Source of the DNA: a virus
IMG/VR virus record: IMGVR_UViG_3300027276_000037
Location: 1-6,445 of that record
Strand: one strand, 5' to 3'
DNA: 6,445 nucleotides
Positions 1 to 6,445 of this stretch are shown in pieces. A program made the translations under genes and the position numbers. The notes beneath the pieces were generated by a model. It made no database searches. It was given only the letters and a program-made list of their open reading frames with translations, and was not told the origin of the DNA. The number at the start of each line of letters is the position of its first letter. Position 1 is the stretch's first letter.

Positions 1-74
1 ATGATCTGCTTCTATATATTATCATTTCTTTGTTGGGGGTTGCGGTCTTATGTCTGTTTATGAAGCGGTTTTAA
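1..74 (+). CDS. 3' end of a CDS entering from upstream (codon phase starts at nt 3), encoding a C-terminal membrane anchor DLLLYIIISLLGVAVLCLFMKRF
   Basis: This frame is open from the window edge to TAA at 72..74. It encodes a hydrophobic helix followed by a basic KRF tail, the same ending style as the 4218..5621 protein. It joins in frame with the truncated ORF at 6010..6445 if the sequence is circular. Confidence 0.4.
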   Translation, partial: DLLLYIIISLLGVAVLCLFMKRF

Positions 75-205
75 ATCTTGTTGGTGATATCCCTGTTGGT
101 TTTGAAATTATCGCTTGGGTTTTCTCCGCTATTGTCCTTATCTATCTTATTTGTTCTGCTTTTTCTATCATTGGTTCTGTTATCAATTATATAGCAGGGA
201 AGTGA
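50..205 (+). CDS. Small hydrophobic membrane protein, 51 aa (MSVYEAVLNLVGDIPVGFEIIAWVFSAIVLIYLICSAFSIIGSVINYIAGK), candidate minor virion or assembly protein
   Basis: ATG at 50 and TGA at 203..205. A G-run (35..39) sits 10 nt upstream as a weak SD. Codons are mostly T-ending, like the neighbouring genes, and there is one clear TM segment. It falls below the ORF-track length cut-off. Confidence 0.5.
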   Translation: MSVYEAVLNLVGDIPVGFEIIAWVFSAIVLIYLICSAFSIIGSVINYIAGK

Positions 206-209
206 TACT

Positions 210-371
210 TTGGATGCTTTTTTAATAGGTTTAGAATCTTCATGGACCTTTTTGGTTGAAGTTTTATCTAAGGTTTTCCAGACTTATACCACTGTCCCTA
301 TTTTTGTGGCTGTCTTTGCCCTTTGGGTTTTAGATAGATTGTTTCATATTTTTGATCTGTTAAAAGGGTAG
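210..371 (+). CDS. Small membrane protein, 53 aa, with a TTG start (MDAFLIGLESSWTFLVEVLSKVFQTYTTVPIFVAVFALWVLDRLFHIFDLLKG)
   Basis: This is the only long open frame between 195 and 371. TTG at 210 is preceded by AGGGAAG (195..201), and TAG lies at 369..371. There is one TM segment. The start is non-ATG, so confidence is lower. Confidence 0.4.
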   Translation: MDAFLIGLESSWTFLVEVLSKVFQTYTTVPIFVAVFALWVLDRLFHIFDLLKG

Positions 372-386
372 AAAGGAGGTTTAAAA

Positions 387-554
387 GTGTCTGCTTTACT
401 TACTGAATTGGGTTTAGTTGTAACTCAGGTTTTTACTTGGGTTGGTACTGTTGCTACTACAATTACTAGTACTCCGCTTTTATTGCTGACTACTGGTTTT
501 CTAGTGCTTGGTGGTGCCGTTGGTATTTTTGGCCGTCTATTGTCTAGAGGATAA
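387..554 (+). CDS. Major-coat-like protein, paralog 1, 55 aa (MSALLTELGLVVTQVFTWVGTVATTITSTPLLLLTTGFLVLGGAVGIFGRLLSRG)
   Basis: GTG at 387 follows a strong SD, AAAGGAGG (372..379), and TAA lies at 552..554. About 80 percent of residues are identical to the 575..763 product. The layout is Pf1-like: an amphipathic N-terminal half, a hydrophobic helix, and two Arg at the C-terminus. Confidence 0.7.
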   Translation: MSALLTELGLVVTQVFTWVGTVATTITSTPLLLLTTGFLVLGGAVGIFGRLLSRG

Positions 555-574
555 AAGGAAGGAGGTATTAAGGA

Positions 575-763
575 ATGGAAGGTGCTGCTATTACTATGTC
601 TACTCTTTTAGGTGATCTTTCAACTGTTGTTACTTCTGTATTCGGTTGGGTTGTTACTGTTGCTGAAACTATTACTGAGACCCCTTTGCTCTTGCTTTGC
701 ACTGGTTTTCTAGTGCTCGGCGGGGCTGTCGGTATCTTTGGCCGTCTGCTTTCCCGCGGCTAA
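575..763 (+). CDS. Major-coat-like protein, paralog 2, 62 aa
   Basis: This ORF is in the track. GGAGG (561..565) lies 9 nt upstream of ATG 575. It is a small protein with an acidic N-terminal part, a hydrophobic helix and the tail GRLLSRG. It sits just before a strong stem-loop, as major coat genes do in Ff-type phages. Confidence 0.8.
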   Translation: MEGAAITMSTLLGDLSTVVTSVFGWVVTVAETITETPLLLLCTGFLVLGGAVGIFGRLLSRG

Positions 764-766
764 GAT

Positions 767-807
767 GGAAGGGGGGCGCTTCAGCTTTAGCAAGCGCCCC
801 CCTTTCC
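767..807 (+). terminator. GC-rich stem-loop after the coat genes, a putative intrinsic terminator or attenuator
   Basis: GGAAGGGGGGCGCT (767..780) pairs with AGCGCCCCCCTTTCC (793..807). That gives 12 contiguous bp plus 2 more after a 1-nt bulge, with a 12-nt loop. There is no long U-tract, so termination is probably partial. Confidence 0.55.
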
Positions 808-825
808 CATGTATGAGGTGTTTTT

Positions 826-975
826 ATGAGTGATTTTTTAATAGCTCTTTTAGATTTATGTTTGTTCCCTTTTCAAAATACTTCTAATTTAATTATCTTT
901 ATCCCAACTGCTTGTGTGACAATCTTTTTCCTTTTTGCTGTTATTTCTCGTTTGGTACGAGGTGATTATAGATGA
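826..975 (+). CDS. Small membrane protein, 49 aa (MSDFLIALLDLCLFPFQNTSNLIIFIPTACVTIFFLFAVISRLVRGDYR)
   Basis: ATG at 826 follows GAGGTG (815..820). The TGA stop at 973..975 overlaps the ATG at 972 of the ATPase gene (ATGA), which suggests translational coupling. There is one long TM segment. Confidence 0.55.
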   Translation: MSDFLIALLDLCLFPFQNTSNLIIFIPTACVTIFFLFAVISRLVRGDYR

Positions 976-1697
976 AGGCTTTTTTCCTTTTTTTAACTTC
1001 TGTTCTTGCTTTCATGACTATTTATCATTTTTTAACTCGTAAATATCTTAACCCTTATAAACTTATTATGATTTTTGGTAAAAAGGGAAGTGGTAAGTCT
1101 ACTTTGCTTATTAAATTAGCCCTTGAATATATGAAAAAAGGTATTCCTGTTTTTTCTACCGAAAAAATTCCCGGTTGTTTCTTGATATCTCCGTCCGATA
1201 TCGGATATACCGAATTTCCTTCTAATTCCGTTATTCTGATAGATGAGGTAGGTATGATTTGGGATAATCGTGGTTTTAAGAATTTCGATACAAAAGTACG
1301 GGATTGGTTTAAGCTCCAAAGACATCGTAAAATCCGTGTTTATTTATTTTCTCAAACTTTTGATATAGATAAAAAAATTCGTGATTTAACTGATGAAATG
1401 TATCTTGTGGAAAAAAAGTTTAGGGTGTTTAGCTATGCAAAACGTATTATCAAACGCACTGTACTTAATAAATCGTCTGCGGAGGCTCCTTCTAAGATCG
1501 ATGAAGATTTGGTCTTCGATTCTTTACTTTTGTTTTGGTGTGGGAGTAGGCGTTTTACTTTCATCCCCAAATATGCAGGCTTATTTGATAGCTTTATTGC
1601 AAAGAAGCTAAAAGAAAGGGAGTTTGAACAAGTCCCGTTGAGTTGCCCAATAAAAGAACGCCGTAAATGGTTTAAGAGAAAAAATGTCAATCAATAA
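972..1697 (+). CDS. Zot/pI-like P-loop morphogenesis (assembly) ATPase with an N-terminal TM anchor, 241 aa
   Basis: Walker A is GKKGSGKST (1077..1103) and Walker B is VILIDE (1230..1247). These are followed by LQRHRKIRVYLFSQTFDIDKKIRDL, which matches the RH..(D/x)..Q..id..ir signature I associate with the Zot/gpI family. The N-terminal hydrophobic helix is MKAFFLFLTSVLAFMTIYHFL. Confidence 0.85.
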   Translation: MKAFFLFLTSVLAFMTIYHFLTRKYLNPYKLIMIFGKKGSGKSTLLIKLALEYMKKGIPVFSTEKIPGCFLISPSDIGYTEFPSNSVILIDEVGMIWDNRGFKNFDTKVRDWFKLQRHRKIRVYLFSQTFDIDKKIRDLTDEMYLVEKKFRVFSYAKRIIKRTVLNKSSAEAPSKIDEDLVFDSLLLFWCGSRRFTFIPKYAGLFDSFIAKKLKEREFEQVPLSCPIKERRKWFKRKNVNQ

Positions 1698-1950
1698 ATG
1701 CTGGATGTGTTGTTGTTCTTCTTGTTCTAATTATCGTTGTTACAGAATGTTCTATAAAGGTGCAAAGCTAAATCATTGCTTAAATTGTATGCGTGAAAAT
1801 ACGCCTCCGATAACGTCTTGTGATTTCTTCATACCAGATTGGCGTAAAAAGTTTTATAAGATTGTATGTAGGAAAAAGCGACGTGATGAGTTGATAACTC
1901 GTTTAGATCGGATAGAGGAGCTTCTAAGGGCCTTGACAAATGATAGGTGA
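1684..1950 (+). CDS. Cys-rich small protein, 88 aa (CxxC x3, putative zinc ribbon) with a basic helical C-terminus
   Basis: This ORF is in the track and overlaps the ATPase stop by 14 nt. The motifs are CWMC, CSSC and CLNC, followed by RKKRRDELITRLDRIEELLRAL. The SD is weak, so the start is uncertain (alternative ATG at 1702). It is the last gene before the terminator. Confidence 0.5.
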   Translation: MSINKCWMCCCSSCSNYRCYRMFYKGAKLNHCLNCMRENTPPITSCDFFIPDWRKKFYKIVCRKKRRDELITRLDRIEELLRALTNDR

Positions 1951-2044
1951 CATGTTACCATTAATTTACATCCAATTAAACAAAATCAGAATTTTGTAGA
2001 CGCATTTGTAAGTAATTGGAATCAAAATATGATAAATTTGCAAC

Positions 2045-2078
2045 AAAAAAAAGAGAGGTTTTAAACCTCTCTTTTTTT
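2045..2078. terminator. Bidirectional intrinsic terminator between convergent genes
   Basis: An A-run (2045..2051) is followed by the stem AGAGAGGTT (2052..2060) paired with AACCTCTCT (2064..2072), a 3-nt loop, and a T-run (2073..2078). This reads as stem plus U-tract on both strands. Confidence 0.75.
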
Positions 2079-2084
2079 ATGTAT

Positions 2085-2321
2085 TTAGATTTTGGGTAGA
2101 GGGAGTATAACGGCTTCGCTGCACTTGTCGGCCCATGCTGCAACTCTGTTAAGGGTATCTCTGGTAATGGCGTGTTCTTCTATCAGATTATCTAGTTTGT
2201 TTTCTACAGTGTCTAAACGCTCATGTATTGCTTTAAACTGAGTACCTATTTGGGATTCCATAGAATCCATGCGGGCGTTCATTTTTTGCAGTTCTTGTAA
2301 AATTAAGGTTTCGTTGTTCAT
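2085..2321 (-). CDS. Coiled-coil protein of unknown function, 78 aa
   Basis: This ORF is in the track. GAGGTG (complement of 2327..2332) lies 5 nt upstream of the ATG. There is a heptad-like helical sequence (LQELQKMNARMDSMESQIGTQFKAIHERLDTVENKLDNLIEEH). It has its own consensus promoter and is followed by a terminator. Confidence 0.7.
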   Translation of the reverse strand: MNNETLILQELQKMNARMDSMESQIGTQFKAIHERLDTVENKLDNLIEEHAITRDTLNRVAAWADKCSEAVILPLPKI

Positions 2322-2338
2322 CTCATCACCTCAAAACT

Positions 2339-2367
2339 AGTATACGGGTTAATTTTTTGCCTGTCAA
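2339..2367 (-). promoter_or_regulatory. Sigma-70/SigA-type promoter for the coiled-coil gene
   Basis: On the minus strand, the -35 TTGACA (complement of 2362..2367) is separated by a 17-nt spacer from the -10 TATACT (complement of 2339..2344). The predicted leader is very short and begins near the SD. Confidence 0.6.
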
Positions 2368-2432
2368 CGGCTTTTTCTTTTGTCTACCCCCGTAAAAGGG
2401 CAGTAGCGACGCGCTGACAGCCTCAACCTATC

Positions 2433-2467
2433 CCGGTTTTGCGGAGTGAATACGGAGCAAAAGCCGG
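2433..2467. other. Stem-loop in a GC-rich non-coding island downstream of the XRE gene
   Basis: CCGGTTTTGC (2433..2442) pairs with GCAAAAGCCGG (2457..2467) with a 1-nt bulge and a 14-nt loop that contains a direct CGGAG repeat. No U-tract follows on the minus strand, so it is not a classical terminator. Confidence 0.4.
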
Positions 2468-2482
2468 TGACCGATAAGCTTA

Positions 2483-2701
2483 TTATCTCGGCCAATCAAG
2501 CCCTTTAGGTAGCCCGAGGATATAGTCTGCACTGACATGATAAAATAGGCATAAGGTTTTAAGATGCTCTATTGGTAAGGGGTGTTTTCCTTTTTCATAC
2601 CTATAATAGTATTGTTTAGTTGTGTTTAGTATTTTTGCGATTTCTTCTTGTGTTAAATCTTTGTCAATTCTTAATTCTTTTAATCTTTCATTGTAATTCA
2701 T
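2483..2701 (-). CDS. XRE/Cro-CI family helix-turn-helix transcriptional regulator, 72 aa from the preferred start
   Basis: The HTH signature is LTQEEIAKILNTTKQYYYRYEKGK, followed by ADYILGL, which is typical of HTH_3/XRE proteins. The ATG at 2701 has GGTGA 8 nt upstream. The track ORF extends to 2755, but that ATG has no SD. Confidence 0.85.
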   Translation of the reverse strand: MNYNERLKELRIDKDLTQEEIAKILNTTKQYYYRYEKGKHPLPIEHLKTLCLFYHVSADYILGLPKGLDWPR

Positions 2702-2765
2702 AGCTAAATTCACCATCTTTATTTTGTTGGTTTTGCTTATTTTATCAAAAACCATATTTTATTAC

Positions 2766-2794
2766 TTGACAGTAATCATATATGATTATATTAT
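2766..2794 (+). promoter_or_regulatory. Consensus-like promoter for the rightward (replication and structural) operon
   Basis: The -35 TTGACA (2766..2771) is separated by a 17-nt spacer from the -10 TATTAT (2789..2794). The spacer is almost entirely occupied by palindrome O1. Confidence 0.6.
2773..2788. promoter_or_regulatory. Operator O1, a perfect 16-bp palindrome TAATCATATATGATTA
   Basis: I verified the perfect dyad by reverse complement. It lies between the -35 and -10 of the rightward promoter and covers part of the leftward -10. Confidence 0.6.
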
Positions 2795-2811
2795 TGTCTC
2801 ATGGTAGTCAT
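2785..2811 (-). promoter_or_regulatory. Candidate leftward promoter for the XRE gene, overlapping the rightward promoter
   Basis: On the minus strand, the -10 TATAAT (complement of 2785..2790) is perfect. The best -35 is ATGACT (complement of 2806..2811, 4 of 6) with a short 15-nt spacer. This element is weaker than the rightward promoter. Confidence 0.3.
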
Positions 2812-2820
2812 ATATGATTA
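2805..2820. promoter_or_regulatory. Operator O2, TAGTCATATATGATTA (one mismatch to O1)
   Basis: This is the second copy of the same dyad, 32 bp centre-to-centre from O1. It lies downstream of the rightward -10, near the expected transcription start. Confidence 0.55.
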
Positions 2821-2849
2821 TTACAAGTAAAAAAGGAGGAAGAAAAGGA

Positions 2850-3083
2850 ATGGAAGTAGTAGGATACAGAGCAATTAATTTTAGAGGTTCAGATGGGAAT
2901 ATGGTTGATGGTGTGACAATCTATTGTACTTATCCCTTGGATAAGGGTGAAGGAATCGGTACAGAACGGTTTTTCTTTTCCCGGCAAAAACTTGATAAAA
3001 GTGATTATCGCCCTAGTGTTGGTGATGATATTGATGTTACGTTTAATCGGTATGGTAAGCCCGATATGATCATCTGCAAATAG
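2850..3083 (+). CDS. Small beta-rich protein, 77 aa, first gene of the rightward operon; candidate ssDNA-binding (gpV-like) protein
   Basis: ATG at 2850 follows GGAGG (2835..2839). The track start at 2814 lies inside operator O2 and has no SD. The size, the predicted beta-rich sequence and the position next to rep resemble inovirus gene V, but I recognise no sequence motif. Confidence 0.65.
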   Translation: MEVVGYRAINFRGSDGNMVDGVTIYCTYPLDKGEGIGTERFFFSRQKLDKSDYRPSVGDDIDVTFNRYGKPDMIICK

Positions 3084-3123
3084 GGTGATCAAAATTTTAA
3101 CTGGCCAATGGGCTGTTAGGGAT

Positions 3124-3132
3124 ACTTGATAT
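3124..3132 (+). promoter_or_regulatory. Candidate plus-strand origin nick site, ACTTGATAT (contains CTTG/ATA)
   Basis: The site lies in the 75-nt intergenic gap immediately upstream of rep. It matches the core of the phiX174 origin (CAACTTGATATTAATAAC, as I recall it) and the pC194-family nick consensus CTTGATA. CTTGATA also occurs at 1181 and 2991 inside genes. Confidence 0.35.
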
Positions 3133-3158
3133 AGCAACAAATTGGTGTCACCTAAAAA

Positions 3159-4055
3159 ATGGTAATAGGGGAGTGGCGTGTTTTGGGATTCGATAGCGCT
3201 AAGAATGCGTTTTATTCTTCCTTGGGCGTCGCTCCCCTTGTTAGTTCTGTTTGTGGCTTAAATCTTTGTAGTGCAGATTTCAAGTCAAATGCCCGTGTAA
3301 AGGTCTATCGCGATTGCCGGTTGTTGCAAGTCTGTAATGATAATATCTTTGTAGATGGCAAAATTGAGGCTATAGACCGTAAAAGCGTCCGCAGATATGA
3401 GGTTCCCCCTAGGGGGCAAGCTGCTGACCCTGAACGTAGTTTAGAGGAATCTCAGCGTCGTGCTGTGTCAGCCGTCCGGGATATTACCCGGTGTAACCGT
3501 TTTGAGTATATGTTTACATGGACGCTGAACGATAAGTTAATTAATCGCTATAATCCGGATGAAGTGTATAAGAGGGTATCGTATTTCTTGCGTAATGCCA
3601 GCCGGCGTAAAGGATTCCGTTATGTGGTTATTCCAGAGTACCATAAATTAAGGCATGGGGAAGATTCCCCCGGTATACATTTCCATGGCCTTTGTAATTT
3701 GGGTAGCGTTCAAATCAAACGAGCGTTGTATAAAGATGGTTCCTTTCGTGTAGATAAGTCTGGTCGTTCTGTTTTCAATATGGTGGATTGGAAATTTGGA
3801 TGGTCAACATGTGTACCAATCGATGAAAATTATAATCGTGCTTGTAGTTACATAGTCAAATACATTACAAAATCTAAAAATAAGATTTTTGGTAAATGGT
3901 ATTTGTCTAGTCGAGATTTGCAAAAACGCCCTGATATTCTGTTTATTGAGCCTGTTGATTTTTATCAATTTAGAGATACTCAAAAAATTGCATCTGGTTT
4001 TCAGTATGAAACGAGGGTATTTAAAGATATAACGATTGTTAGCGAGGAGTTTTAG
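3159..4055 (+). CDS. Rolling-circle replication initiator (HUH endonuclease, two-tyrosine YxxKY type, phiX174 gpA/pC194-like superfamily)
   Basis: Motif 1 is FTWTL (3513..3527), motif 2 is IHFHGL (3675..3692) and motif 3 is YIVKYITK (from 3849). An alternative start is TTG at 3183, which has GGGGAG 9 nt upstream. ATG 3159 has only a weak SD. Confidence 0.9.
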   Translation: MVIGEWRVLGFDSAKNAFYSSLGVAPLVSSVCGLNLCSADFKSNARVKVYRDCRLLQVCNDNIFVDGKIEAIDRKSVRRYEVPPRGQAADPERSLEESQRRAVSAVRDITRCNRFEYMFTWTLNDKLINRYNPDEVYKRVSYFLRNASRRKGFRYVVIPEYHKLRHGEDSPGIHFHGLCNLGSVQIKRALYKDGSFRVDKSGRSVFNMVDWKFGWSTCVPIDENYNRACSYIVKYITKSKNKIFGKWYLSSRDLQKRPDILFIEPVDFYQFRDTQKIASGFQYETRVFKDITIVSEEF

Positions 4056-4057
4056 GA

Positions 4058-4192
4058 ATGCAATATATTTTAAGGGATGAAGATGAAATATTTTTATATA
4101 CTTCGGATGAATCTTTAGCGTGTGCGTATTTTGAGTTATATATGGCTTTGGATTGTAGTGTTGAATTGTTTGTTATCTCTGATGAAGATTAA
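4058..4192 (+). CDS. Small, highly acidic protein, 44 aa (MQYILRDEDEIFLYTSDESLACAYFELYMALDCSVELFVISDED)
   Basis: ATG at 4058 lies 8 nt after GAGGAG (4044..4049) and 2 nt after the rep stop. TAA lies at 4190..4192. It has 12 Asp/Glu against 1 Arg. It falls below the ORF-track cut-off. Confidence 0.5.
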   Translation: MQYILRDEDEIFLYTSDESLACAYFELYMALDCSVELFVISDED

Positions 4193-4217
4193 AGGATAGG
4201 GTAGGGGAGTGGTTGCT

Positions 4218-5621
4218 GTGAAAAAGTATATTATATGTGTTTTTATTTTTATTAGTCTTTTCACTGTGTCCGCTTCTGCTGCCGTTGTATATTCTGGCGT
4301 TGGTCAAGACTATTTTTCTGGTTTAGATATTGGTCAATTTAATGGAAAAGTAATTGTTTGGGGAAGAACTACTTCTAGTGGTACATTATCTGGTTCTTCT
4401 AATTCTTTTTCTTTAGATAGTGGTAACGGTGATATTTTATTTAGTGTTTCAGGTAAACCATATGTTGACTATGTAGATATGTCTTTTGTAAATTCAAATT
4501 ACTTTTTTGAATCTGGTCGTACTTATGTATTGTACTTTGAAATTCCTATAGATTCTGGCCAAACAAATAGAATTTTTCCTGCTTTGTTTAACCGTTCGAC
4601 GAATCGATCATTATCGTTAAAGGGTTATGATTTATTAGATAAATTGATTACTATTCAGGATTACAGTAGTTCTGTTTCATCTGTTTATAATTACAGTAAT
4701 CGTACTATGCGATTTAATTTAAGTTTTACTCCAACTGTTGATATAGCTGGTGATATATTTTTAAGATTAAGCTTTTCTTCTCCTGTGGGATTAGATTCGT
4801 TAGGCTGGTCTTATGATTCGCATCAATATATTTTAAAAAATCCTGTTATTCGCCGTTCATCCGGGTCAAATTCAGTAGATGTATATATTAATCAGGCTGC
4901 GTCTGAGATTGTAAATGCAGTGAATGATTTAAATCTTAATTTTTCTGCAATGGGTAATGCTTTACAGGACATTCTTTCATATATGACTGGTGATCAAGAA
5001 GCTATTTTAAATTCCACATATGATGAGCTTTATGCAATTCATTATTTGCTTAGTAATAATATGATTCCGGCAATTGTAAATGGTTTTGCTTCTCTGGAAG
5101 GCGCTGTGAAGCTTGGTTTTGCTGATACGGCTCTTGAGATTCAGGCTCAGACTTCTCAGCTTATTTTAACCTTAACGAATTGTTTTGAATCGTTAGAAAT
5201 TAAAATAGGGCAAGAATCTGATGATATTCAGTCTGCTATTCAAGCGCAGACTAATGCTATTTTAGCCTATTTGGAAAATGCTTTTTCACAGTCTAATTCT
5301 GGTGCTATGTTGGATTCTATAGGTGATTTGGAAAATACATATGCTCCTGCTGGTGCGGTAGAAGATGAGGTAATGAGCAGCATTGATAATTATTTACCTG
5401 ATATTGGCTATGATACTTTTTCAGTACCTGTAGGCGTCTTATCTGCTATGACTTGGACAGTAGGTAAATTTAATGTCATATGGGATGAGCTAGGGGCAGA
5501 TCTACAGTTTTTAATAATGCTTCCTTTGATGATCGGTTTAGTTCTCTTGCTGATTGGCCGTGGTTCGATGTCCTATATTATGTCTGGTTTAATGCGTCAT
5601 CGGAGAAAAGGTGATTCATAG
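4218..5621 (+). CDS. Secreted, C-terminally membrane-anchored large virion protein (pIII-like adsorption or minor coat candidate), 467 aa
   Basis: GTG at 4218 lies 8 nt after GGGGAG (4204..4209), although the track uses GTG at 4209. The signal peptide is MKKYIICVFIFISLFTVSASA. The N-terminal part is rich in Ser/Asn/Tyr, the middle is helical, and the C-terminal TM LIMLPLMIGLVLLLIG is followed by the basic tail RHRRKG. Confidence 0.85.
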   Translation: MKKYIICVFIFISLFTVSASAAVVYSGVGQDYFSGLDIGQFNGKVIVWGRTTSSGTLSGSSNSFSLDSGNGDILFSVSGKPYVDYVDMSFVNSNYFFESGRTYVLYFEIPIDSGQTNRIFPALFNRSTNRSLSLKGYDLLDKLITIQDYSSSVSSVYNYSNRTMRFNLSFTPTVDIAGDIFLRLSFSSPVGLDSLGWSYDSHQYILKNPVIRRSSGSNSVDVYINQAASEIVNAVNDLNLNFSAMGNALQDILSYMTGDQEAILNSTYDELYAIHYLLSNNMIPAIVNGFASLEGAVKLGFADTALEIQAQTSQLILTLTNCFESLEIKIGQESDDIQSAIQAQTNAILAYLENAFSQSNSGAMLDSIGDLENTYAPAGAVEDEVMSSIDNYLPDIGYDTFSVPVGVLSAMTWTVGKFNVIWDELGADLQFLIMLPLMIGLVLLLIGRGSMSYIMSGLMRHRRKGDS

Positions 5622-5839
5622 TGTTAGCTTTTTTAGAAAACCTTGTTTCTTTTGTTGTTGGTTTAGTTGATTTTTTCATTAATATTATAAAGTCGTTAAT
5701 TTATGCAATTACTCTTGTTCCGATCGGAATGACTTTTTCATCTAGCTTGGTTTTAATGCTTCCGGCTGTTATACAAGCATGTGTTTTAGCTGGTATTGCT
5801 TTAACTGTCCTATTTTTGATTTTGGGGAGGCATAGTTGA
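5621..5839 (+). CDS. Polytopic small membrane protein, 72 aa (pVI-like candidate)
   Basis: This ORF is in the track. GTG at 5621 overlaps the upstream TAG by 1 nt (TAGTG), and AAAGGTGA lies 6 nt upstream. There are two or three hydrophobic segments. Confidence 0.75.
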   Translation: MLAFLENLVSFVVGLVDFFINIIKSLIYAITLVPIGMTFSSSLVLMLPAVIQACVLAGIALTVLFLILGRHS

Positions 5840-5997
5840 TGGAGCAGATGTTAGGTTTTTTCATTGGGAAAATAAGTGATTTTTTGGGTATGCTTGCAGG
5901 TTTTCAAATTGTCTCCGGCATATCGTTTTTAAGTTTGGTTTTAGCTTTCTTGGTTTTTAATCTGTTGATTGTCAATTTTGTTCTCCGGGCAAAGTAA
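5839..5997 (+). CDS. Small membrane protein, 52 aa (MEQMLGFFIGKISDFLGMLAGFQIVSGISFLSLVLAFLVFNLLIVNFVLRAK)
   Basis: ATG at 5839 overlaps the upstream TGA (TGATG). GGGGAGG (5824..5830) lies 8 nt upstream, and TAA lies at 5995..5997. Confidence 0.6.
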   Translation: MEQMLGFFIGKISDFLGMLAGFQIVSGISFLSLVLAFLVFNLLIVNFVLRAK

Positions 5998-6009
5998 GGA
6001 AGTGTTTTG

Positions 6010-6445
6010 ATGATGAAGAAGGTGATTTGTTTTGGTTTGGTTTTTGTCTGTCTGGCTACAGTGGGTTATGCTTATGGCAGCACACCCCCTTCTAATCCCC
6101 GTGTTTCTGGCGCTTGTTTTATCGATTGTCGTACTGTTGAGCTTGGCCGTGTTACGTTATATTTCCCCGTTACATACCAATACGACTGTTTAACCTATTC
6201 TTCTAGCGGTAATCTGTTCAACCTTACCAATTCTACTATCACAGGGTTCTATTATGATTCTTCTTCTGTGGGGGATAGCCAATTAGCCGTCCGGTTTACT
6301 TCTTTTAATGAGCCGGAATATAGGTATGCTTACGAAAATGGCAATTATATCTCTTATACCTATGATAACCTTACCATTACCGAGATTCTTAATACCAATA
6401 TAGATATTGTAGAATCTTACGATGATCTTACTATTGTTCCCCGTC
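6010..6445 (+). CDS. Secreted protein with an N-terminal signal peptide, 3' truncated at the window edge (second virion or adsorption-type protein candidate)
   Basis: ATGATG at 6010 follows AAGGAAG (5997..6003). I translated by hand to the window end and found no stop. The signal-like N-terminus is MMKKVICFGLVFVCLATVGYAYG, followed by a Tyr/Ser/Asn/Thr-rich sequence. Confidence 0.75.
   Translation, partial: MMKKVICFGLVFVCLATVGYAYGSTPPSNPRVSGACFIDCRTVELGRVTLYFPVTYQYDCLTYSSSGNLFNLTNSTITGFYYDSSSVGDSQLAVRFTSFNEPEYRYAYENGNYISYTYDNLTITEILNTNIDIVESYDDLTIVPR

Follow-up and report, generated by a model that had tools for sequence, protein, structure and literature searches.

How a filamentous phage that encodes no integrase comes to reside in a bacterial chromosome is the question raised by IMG/VR record IMGVR_UViG_3300027276_000037, a stretch of viral DNA of 6445 nucleotides (nt) that was analyzed at its full length and is hereafter called the window. 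Taken together, the evidence makes it very probable that the window is the complete circular genome of a temperate Tubulavirales/inovirus-like phage, that its host belongs to the gut Oscillospirales (class Clostridia), and that the phage integrates at a dif-like chromosomal site, presumably by means of a Xer-family enzyme of the host. The contigs, genomes, and phage records compared with the window are cited by L numbers (e.g., L002) where they have to be told apart.

The window carries one dif-like site, attP (ATTAAACAAAA-TCAGAA-TTTTGTAGACG), where 0.01 matches would be expected by chance, and no second such site was found in it, even with up to 3 mismatches tolerated over 23 nt or up to 7 over 28 nt. 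Contig L002 (7887 nt) is identical to the window up to position 1997 and then runs into the gene of a 350-aa (amino acid) tyrosine recombinase, which occupies L002 6624-7676. The same junction, with the host xer gene joined at 1997|1998, is present in L002, L004, L046, and L047, that is, in four samples and in the products of several assemblers, L047 coming from the same Joint Genome Institute (JGI) sample as the window contig. In L002, position 1997 is found joined both to 1998 and to xer. The site on the recombinase side, attR (ATTAAACAAAA-TCAGAA-TTTTGTTTAAT), is a perfect 11-6-11 palindrome of 28 bp located 37 nt upstream of the recombinase ATG. The opposite boundary, attL, was recovered in contig L050, which stems from the same sample as L004 and consists of 105 nt of non-phage DNA, the sequence ATTGAACAAAA-TCAGAA-TTTTGT, and then phage DNA from position 1998 on. 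Arm position 4 is G in attL and A in attR and, therefore, the crossover took place inside the site, between arm position 5 and right-arm position 6. The attB inferred from these boundaries is ATTGAACAAAA-TCAGAA-TTTTGTTTAAT, i.e., ATTGAACAAAATCAGAATTTTGTTTAAT. In L046 (299-326), the left arm of attR (ATTGAAC) has the G of the host type despite a phage flank, which represents either a phage variant or a different outcome of crossover or repair.

A conserved arm and centre combined with a degenerate opposite arm is the signature of the attP of Xer-dependent integrative mobile elements that exploit Xer (IMEXs) (PMC5357621). The phage encodes no recombinase of its own, and its attP resembles the target in one arm and in the centre and departs from it in the other arm, as is also found in the prophage relatives L010, L028, L036, and L037. 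Moreover, the element lies between hybrid and regenerated sites at a fixed locus, with attR seen in four samples, attL in one, and both ends in the four relatives. In those prophages (L010/L009, L028, L036, and L037), the degenerate site is situated at the end that carries the XRE-type repressor gene and the perfect palindrome at the end that carries the gene of the Zot-type ATPase, followed by a homologue of the recombinase; the recombinase homologues of the xer-linked relatives are 47–57% identical. A scan of one genome per species returned 30 loci, nearly all of them in Oscillospiraceae and Lachnospiraceae, and the palindromic site (pattern NAACAAAA-N6-TTTTGTTN) is present in 11 of these. 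The inner arm, AACAAAA, does not vary between genera, while the bases of the outer arm co-vary in such a way that the palindrome is preserved. Insertion at a dif-like site beside a host gene of Xer type thus accounts for the absence of an integrase from the phage. To the left of the prophage in L037, a 1.19-kb cassette (2260-3465) with a single 321-aa open reading frame (ORF; HNH-like, CxxC...HH) is enclosed by two degenerate dif-like sites, and this locus looks like an array of elements at one site, as at Vibrio dif.

It is unlikely that integration at this site, real in itself, proceeds by RecA-dependent homologous recombination or through some host recombinase other than the neighboring Xer-like enzyme. 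Such a route would draw on homology that, in some relatives, stretches well past the 28-bp site, namely the near identity upstream of the site over ~76 nt in L028 and ~43 nt in L036. For this phage, an ungapped comparison of 90 nt with the host left flank in L050 gives 40 matches, where shuffled sequences gave a mean of 24, a standard deviation of 4.2, and a maximum of 38. The part ascribed to the Xer-like enzyme is, moreover, deduced from sequence. However, L010/L009 and L037 show no flank homology outside a core of 17–23 nt, and the 23 identical bases available to this phage are presumably too few for efficient RecA recombination. In addition, the junction always falls inside the palindrome, with one arm and the centre kept and the other arm degenerate, which is the pattern left by Xer-dependent IMEXs (PMC5357621). 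The shared flank includes a promoter-like sequence just upstream of attP, and a similar TTGACA-N17-TACCAT lies at the same distance from the site in the host left flank (reverse complement of L050, 47-75); the phage may supply the recombinase gene downstream with a surrogate promoter.

The completeness of the genome follows from contig L003 (JGI contig Ga0079305_1005504, 6568 nt), which equals positions 1875-6445 of the window followed by positions 1-1997 at 100% identity, has a terminal overlap of 123 nt, and encodes exactly the Zot and Rep proteins of the window. The window is L003 circularized and then rotated, a closed circle of 6445 nt, a size inside the range of about 4.5–12 kb expected for an inovirus-like phage. 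L002 and L003, from two samples, span the whole genome at 100% identity to the window, and partial contigs from other samples match it likewise. Since its ends join into a circle of 6445 nt, the element is no piece of a plasmid or of an integrative and conjugative element, and that possibility was discarded. An earlier, sequence-only reading of the window had described a compact inovirus-like genome without secretin or integrase. Both statements hold: a Zot/pI protein and a Rep of the inovirus G2P family were recognized by profile search, the nearest relatives are complete circular Inoviridae genomes from animal faeces, and no secretin, integrase (Phage_integrase), Resolvase, transposase, or conjugation domain was detected in the ORFs scanned, a set from which a 53-aa ORF at 6032-6193, overlapping the wrap-around gene described below, and shorter overlapping frames were left out.

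It is very improbable that this genome is that of a rolling-circle replicon of defective or satellite nature, or of a plasmid-like relic, which no longer makes filaments and persists only as a prophage or tandem array. Such a description would agree with particles being predicted from the genes, with a circularity that could come from tandem copies, and with the existence of truncated relatives, such as L006, in which only the coat–Zot part is present. Nevertheless, all modules are intact and free of frameshifts, starts and stops are tightly coupled, and the identity to the window is complete in the whole-genome contigs from the two samples as well as in the partial ones. Furthermore, viral-metagenomic workflows on faeces and saliva yield close relatives as complete circular genomes (PMC11281440), and the inoviruses of Enterocloster have been shown experimentally to be secreted (PMC10061712). 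Tandem prophage copies occur among the relatives, ~6415 nt apart in L015, a metagenome-assembled genome (MAG) of Dysosmobacter, and ~8127 nt apart in L029, a MAG of Acetatifactor.

The recombinase is encoded by a host gene, since it lies beyond the att sites that bound the element and its homologues are chromosomal. Homologues that are 60–67% identical and named XerC are found in Agathobaculum and Intestinibacillus on contigs of 0.45–1.5 Mb with no prophage near. In L007, the recombinase gene follows dprA and is co-transcribed with it, and radA and an amidase gene lie on the other side of the prophage (radA in L010 and L006). That the gene belongs to a longer, integrase-carrying phage variant of which the window is a deletion derivative is scarcely credible and was rejected, because, even with phage and recombinase on one 7.9-kb contig (L002) and the gene directly after Zot in many relatives, the att repeats bracket the phage with the recombinase outside, L002 holds both types of junction, and the homologues, dprA, and radA place the gene in the chromosome.

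The best models for the recombinase are XerC (204 bits), XerA (189 bits), and XerD (184 bits), and the motifs GMRVSEL, GKGNKER, HKLRHT, LGHVS, and IYTH contain the residues expected for catalysis (R, K, HxxR, H, and Y). It is not an XerS equivalog (NF003462, 132 bits versus a cut-off of 267). The site adjoins the recombinase gene in L002, L006, L009, L017, L028, L036, and L037, and this adjacency, together with the family assignment, suggests that the host Xer enzyme catalyzes integration, while the near-palindromic target points to the action of one recombinase, not of an XerC/XerD pair. The truncated relative in L006 (3487-5726) comprises a partial Zot fragment, small genes, two coat genes, and Zot between radA and a xer-like gene, and there the palindrome GGTCAACAAAATAAAAATTTTGTTGACC overlaps the Zot stop. 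Term and full-text searches of the literature returned no description of Xer-dependent integration in inoviruses of Clostridia, and no description of the Xer system of Oscillospiraceae was found in the literature searched.

Several observations weigh against the interpretation as a whole, and they concern both the integration and the virus itself. No empty attB was recovered for this host, and exact-pattern scans gave no match, neither for the right side of attP in collections of metagenomes and viruses nor for the left flank of the host in the metagenome collection. The recombinase scores below every Xer equivalog cut-off. The flanks of the site tend to switch the sign of their GC skew, as would be expected if the site were a true chromosome dimer-resolution site near the terminus, and these flanks are short and the evidence for a terminus weak. 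Moreover, no palindrome lies upstream of the homologous XerC gene in Intestinibacillus and Agathobaculum (L040 and L042-L045, 9840-10000), and L011, L013, L015, and L021 possess the palindrome with no adjacent xer gene. There are, thus, genes without the palindrome as well as palindromes without the gene, the link between the two is not general, and a universal xer–site module was ruled out. With regard to the virus, the terminal overlap in the assembly could stem from tandem prophage copies instead of free circles, and virions and their single-stranded DNA (ssDNA) are predicted here from the genes. The coat-like proteins match no Pfam or PHROG family; the 470-aa adsorption candidate has no Pfam or NCBIfam match, no GenBank phage match, and no homology to characterized pIII proteins; and the model of the candidate ssDNA-binding protein (SSB) found nothing below E = 0.001 in a Foldseek search of the PDB (best E = 0.08), which leaves its structural support below threshold. 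As a separate observation on the XerC homologue of Intestinibacillus and Agathobaculum, it diverges there from a Macro-domain gene.

A wider proposal, for and against which the chances are about even, is that the inoviruses of gut Oscillospiraceae include a large clade of IMEXs of Gram-positive hosts. These would use a single, non-XerS recombinase of Xer type at a palindromic 28-bp dif-like site often located directly upstream of its gene, would keep this recombinase expressed after insertion by means of a look-alike promoter, and would share the site as an integration platform with other cassettes, e.g., the 1.2-kb HNH-like element of L037. The genome alone adds one more species to the many metagenomic gut inoviruses and is routine in this respect. 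The evidence for attP and for integration of Xer type is the single feature that goes beyond routine annotation. Since attP, attL, and attR were all recovered for one phage, and the same architecture exists in cultured strains (Pseudoflavonifractor-like prophages and relatives in Yanshouia hominis BX1), Xer-type lysogeny of filamentous phages of Clostridia can be tested directly. The findings also point to a candidate dimer-resolution module in Oscillospiraceae, composed of a palindromic site and a single recombinase, which would aid the calling of prophage boundaries and the assignment of hosts for thousands of integrase-less gut inovirus contigs.

Table 1. Sites, control elements, and genes of the 6445-nt circular genome, in window coordinates.
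Feature	Position	Strand	Basis or remark
51-aa small membrane protein, morphogenesis module	50..205	+	One strong transmembrane (TM) segment; same position in relatives, 30–65% identity (tblastn)
53-aa small membrane protein	210..371	+	TM; 60% identical to ORF of bajarodino virus 45 (L001 5526-5675)
Coat-like paralogue 1, 55 aa	387..554	+	Acidic N-terminus, TM 29-52, basic C-terminus RLLSRG
Coat-like paralogue 2, 62 aa	575..763	+	C-terminal half resembles paralogue 1
49-aa membrane protein	826..975	+	TM 18-46; stop overlaps Zot start; kept upstream of Zot in relatives
Zot/pI-type assembly ATPase, 241 aa	972..1697	+	PF05707 26.1 bits versus 20.3 cut-off; PHROG 197 'Zot-like' 1.8e-14
67-aa protein (88 aa with Cys-rich N-terminal extension if start is 1684)	1747..1950	+	Gene calls on L002 and L003
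Promoter-like TTGACA-N17-TACCAT	1933..1961	+	Just upstream of attP, pointing to attP
attP, dif-like	1975..2002	+	Left arm and centre intact, right arm degenerate
Near-perfect hairpin, 16-nt arms, 1 nt between (15 paired by folder)	2046..2078		Between convergent genes
78-aa coiled-coil protein	2085..2321	-	Weak matches to coiled-coil families only
XRE/Cro-type repressor	2483..2755	-	HTH_3 3.4e-13; PHROG 8 3.5e-20
Divergent control region	2755..2820		Two 32-nt direct repeats, each with a 16-nt palindrome (TAATCATATATGATTA, TAGTCATATATGATTA)
OB-fold-like protein, 77 aa, candidate SSB (RstB/gVp-like)	2850..3083	+	Starts of homologues; AlphaFold2 model
HUH rolling-circle replication initiator (Rep), 298 aa	3159..4055	+	PF23343 REP_ORF2-G2P 36.5 bits versus 27.8 cut-off
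44-aa acidic protein, not membrane-bound	4058..4192	+	ORF listing, hydrophobicity, profile scan
470-aa pIII-like adsorption/minor coat candidate	4209..5621	+	Start uncertain: 4209, 4218, or 4266
72-aa membrane protein, two TM segments	5621..5839	+	Homologues in L001, L017, and L022
52/53-aa membrane protein	5836..5997	+	40% identical to ORF of bajarodino virus 45
168-aa signal-plus-anchor protein	6013..6445 (first 144 codons) and 1..74 (last 24 codons and stop)	+	Wraps window ends

The features of the genome are collected in Table 1. Most of what had been proposed for its genes from sequence alone stands after profile searching, including the XRE switch through its HTH_3 match, the rolling-circle Rep through a PF23343 score above the cut-off together with its HUH (GIHFHGL) and YIVKY motifs, and the Zot/pI-like ATPase, for which the comparison with PF05707 that had been recommended was carried out and which PHROG 197 supports as well. 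The overlapping stops and starts, the GGAGG-type Shine–Dalgarno sequences, the GTG and TTG starts, and the low GC content (local G+C of 31–45% in 500-nt windows) were all seen, and the small proteins are mostly membrane-bound, seven of 49–72 aa having TM segments. The statement that all genes lie on one strand was wrong, as the XRE gene and the gene of the 78-aa coiled-coil protein occupy the minus strand.

The control region lies between the XRE gene and a rightward operon, and its two palindromic repeats are probably operators; a promoter, TTGACA-N17-TATTAT, is located at 2766-2794 with 11 of 12 positions matching. Homologues of XRE that are 54–74% identical are found in the prophages L010, L028, L036, and L037. 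For the candidate SSB, the ORF proposed from sequence alone was sustained and its start was not. An exhaustive search with ORF 2814-3083 gave 396 representative homologues, the majority of which begin at M13, and the protein, therefore, has 77 aa and starts at 2850, not at 2814. AlphaFold2 with an alignment of 45 sequences modeled it at a predicted local distance difference test (pLDDT) value of 96.8 as strand-strand-strand-helix-strand-strand, an OB-like topology, and on the single sequence the pLDDT was 46 and the model was not usable. Although all its PDB matches are below threshold, the top of that list consists mostly of SSB OB-folds, including the Pf3 SSB 1pfs (TM-score 0.44). Against viral models, the best Foldseek matches are unnamed proteins and a protein of Inoviridae sp., and the SSB of Thermus phage OH3 (E = 0.019) and an 'RstB-like' protein (E = 0.02) follow, again below threshold. 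A word-indexed homologue search returned only the protein itself, and a profile search of the PDB gave no match. An SSB role is plausible from the predicted fold. Rep is 32% identical to its best GenBank phage match and 54% identical to a protein in Oscillibacter ruminantium GH1.

The intergenic region at 1951-2084, which contains attP and the hairpin, folds as ssDNA at -25.1 kcal/mol (z = -6.6). The outer stem around attP is formed by TCCAATTA with TAATTGGA, and the motif GTAATTGGA also occurs to the right of attL in L010. This fold pairs the two arms of one palindrome and rebuilds no full site, and a folded double attP of the CTXphi type was ruled out, there being one site in the window. The hairpin at 2046-2078 is a candidate for a bidirectional terminator and/or an ssDNA signal.

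In the morphogenesis module, the Zot protein has the Walker A motif GKKGSGKST, a single TM segment at residues 3-22, i.e., at the N-terminus, and no C-terminal periplasmic domain. The pI protein of Gram-negative systems, in contrast, has a C-terminal TM segment and a periplasmic domain, both of which the short Zot of the window is without. An FtsK/HerA or conjugative ATPase in place of Zot was excluded, since none scored above the Zot matches or its own curated cut-off, and the sole conjugative trace in the product of 972-1697 is a faint TrbE match of 16.5 bits against a cut-off of 810. The two coat-like genes stem, as judged from their alignment, from the duplication of a 149-nt segment, which is preserved as a direct repeat of 70% identity (417-565 versus 626-774). 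Two coat copies are also present in L009, L013, L015, L016, L031, and L035, and a single copy in L011, L012, and L017. The first paralogue is preceded by the Shine–Dalgarno sequence AAAGGAGG and is 85% identical to its counterpart in bajarodino virus 45. Both the 55- and the 62-aa proteins have the architecture of a coat protein, with one TM segment, a basic C-terminus, and a strong Shine–Dalgarno sequence. The label of Pf1-style coat genes has to be withdrawn, since there is no family match and the proteins, which lack a cleavable-looking leader, combine an acidic N-terminus with one TM segment and a basic C-terminus; this arrangement is presumably closer to that of Pf3 than to that of Pf1.

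Two proteins have an architecture typical of adsorption proteins, a signal peptide combined with a C-terminal anchor. The 470-aa product, proposed previously as a pIII-like anchored protein and upheld as such in terms of architecture, has a hydrophobic leader (1-31), a TM segment at 427-455, and then a basic tail, and is 24–35% identical to its counterparts in prophage relatives. The 168-aa product is encoded by a gene split by the arbitrary linearization of the circle and, for its part, had been missing from the earlier list. This gene is called on L003 at 4139-4645, and its product has TM segments at 1-23 and 141-168 and is 30–43% identical in relatives. The 67/88-aa protein upstream of attP has no family match and no counterpart in the relatives examined.

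Among GenBank phages, 77 inovirus records contain a Zot relative (tblastn) with up to 72% identity, and Zot is annotated in nearly all of those listed. These records are bajarodino viruses from rodent faeces, Dulem viruses from lemur samples, and porcine or human 'Inovirus sp.' The best-matching ones measure 4.6–6.8 kb, most of those listed 5–7 kb, and PQ006152, which matches most closely, is entered under Inoviridae as a complete genome of circular form. Bajarodino viruses 45 (PQ006152), 46, 63, 67, and 70, Dulem viruses 67-74, and the porcine MT135313 have Zot proteins 54–72% identical and coat paralogues 74–88% identical to those of the window, and share with it the order of the small membrane genes before Zot. 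By contrast, bajarodino virus 45 (Zot 72%), the one GenBank record in which counterparts of XRE and the OB-fold protein were looked for, has no detected counterpart of XRE, the OB-fold protein, Rep, or the 470-aa protein. The genome as aligned is therefore a mosaic, in which a shared morphogenesis module is combined with a different module for replication and control. At the nucleotide level, no GenBank phage covers more than 11% of the genome. A literature search on the name 'bajarodino' found no paper.

The Zot family has 2664 homologues in a large protein collection, most of the best 120 being on contigs of a few kb, and no relative in IMG/VR exceeds 67% identity. As prophages, relatives were found in Yanshouia hominis BX1 (Zot 70%), Pseudoflavonifractor, Oscillibacter, Ruthenibacterium, Dysosmobacter, Lawsonibacter, and Lachnospiraceae; Oscillibacter ruminantium GH1 and Lawsonibacter faecis NSJ-52 are among the strains that carry one. 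The Bacillota-type host deduced earlier from the sequence was therefore right, given that the prophage relatives reside in genomes of Oscillospiraceae and Lachnospiraceae, and these matches support narrowing the host to gut Clostridia. The suggestion of an undescribed or cryptic inovirus is valid at the level of the species and not for the group, which is already documented (PMC11281440, PMC10061712, PMC6813254); the novelty is that of a species-level member of a documented group of gut inoviruses.

From the arrangement of genes and repeats, and from what is known of the families involved, a life cycle may be proposed. The minus-strand XRE gene faces a rightward operon for the OB-fold protein and Rep, with the plus-strand morphogenesis block next; this block comprises two signal-plus-anchor proteins, two coat-like paralogues, six other small membrane proteins, and the Zot/pI ATPase. 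XRE and the two palindromic operators would set the switch between the minus- and plus-strand units. Rep would nick the replicative form and drive rolling-circle synthesis, and the OB-fold protein would coat the plus strands. In turn, the membrane-anchored Zot ATPase would load coat protein onto the DNA at the membrane, the ends of the filament would be formed by the two anchored proteins together with the small membrane proteins, and the filament would be extruded through the cytoplasmic membrane, a step that needs no secretin in a host lacking an outer membrane. The double-stranded form, as the junctions indicate, would recombine at attP with the chromosomal palindrome, presumably through the neighboring Xer-family enzyme of the host, as Vibrio IMEXs use XerCD/dif. 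Excision, or replication from an integrated or tandem copy, would then regenerate circles.

Among known systems, Pf3 is presumably alike in having a short coat-like protein without an obvious cleavable leader, with an acidic N-terminus, one TM segment, and a basic C-terminus, and the small OB-fold protein is a weak structural match to the Pf3 SSB 1pfs. Pf3 differs from the phage described here in its Gram-negative host and in an assembly system that includes a secretin, and no sequence homology is detectable. The inoviruses of Enterocloster (Burckhardt et al. 2023, PMC10061712) are alike in being temperate phages of gut Clostridia with genomes of 6.5–8.5 kb, a pI/Zot homologue, and flanking direct repeats; they differ in their Lachnospiraceae host, and the likeness is drawn from their published description. 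Term searches in that paper turned up neither an integrase nor a recombinase, nor any analysis of recombination at the direct repeats. Roux et al. define a canonical att site by direct repeats that lie in a tRNA or adjoin an integrase gene, and neither Xer nor dif occurs as a word in their paper.

With regard to the site and its enzyme, the XerS/difSL system of streptococci and lactococci is similar in having a single gene of Xer type immediately adjoining its site on a Bacillota chromosome (PMC1914069, PMC5357621). In contrast to that system, the enzyme described here is not an XerS equivalog, the site has 28 bp with a 6-bp centre instead of 31 bp with an 11-bp centre, and the adjacency of gene and site is missing in some related genera. 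The attP of CTXphi type is also unlike, since it needs two inverted sites. Xer-exploiting elements are known among the filamentous phages of Vibrio, Xanthomonas, and other Gram-negative bacteria (PMC5357621, PMC4246890). The Vibrio IMEXs of the VGJphi and TLCphi types differ from the present case, which involves a Gram-positive host, a nearly perfect 11-6-11 palindrome as the target, and a site that in many hosts lies beside the recombinase gene. Nevertheless, as far as the sequence junctions reach, the likeness extends to a filamentous phage without integrase, to a single attP that mimics one arm and the centre of dif (PMC5357621, PMC4246890), to a prophage placed between a hybrid and a regenerated site, and to the occurrence of arrays or tandem copies.

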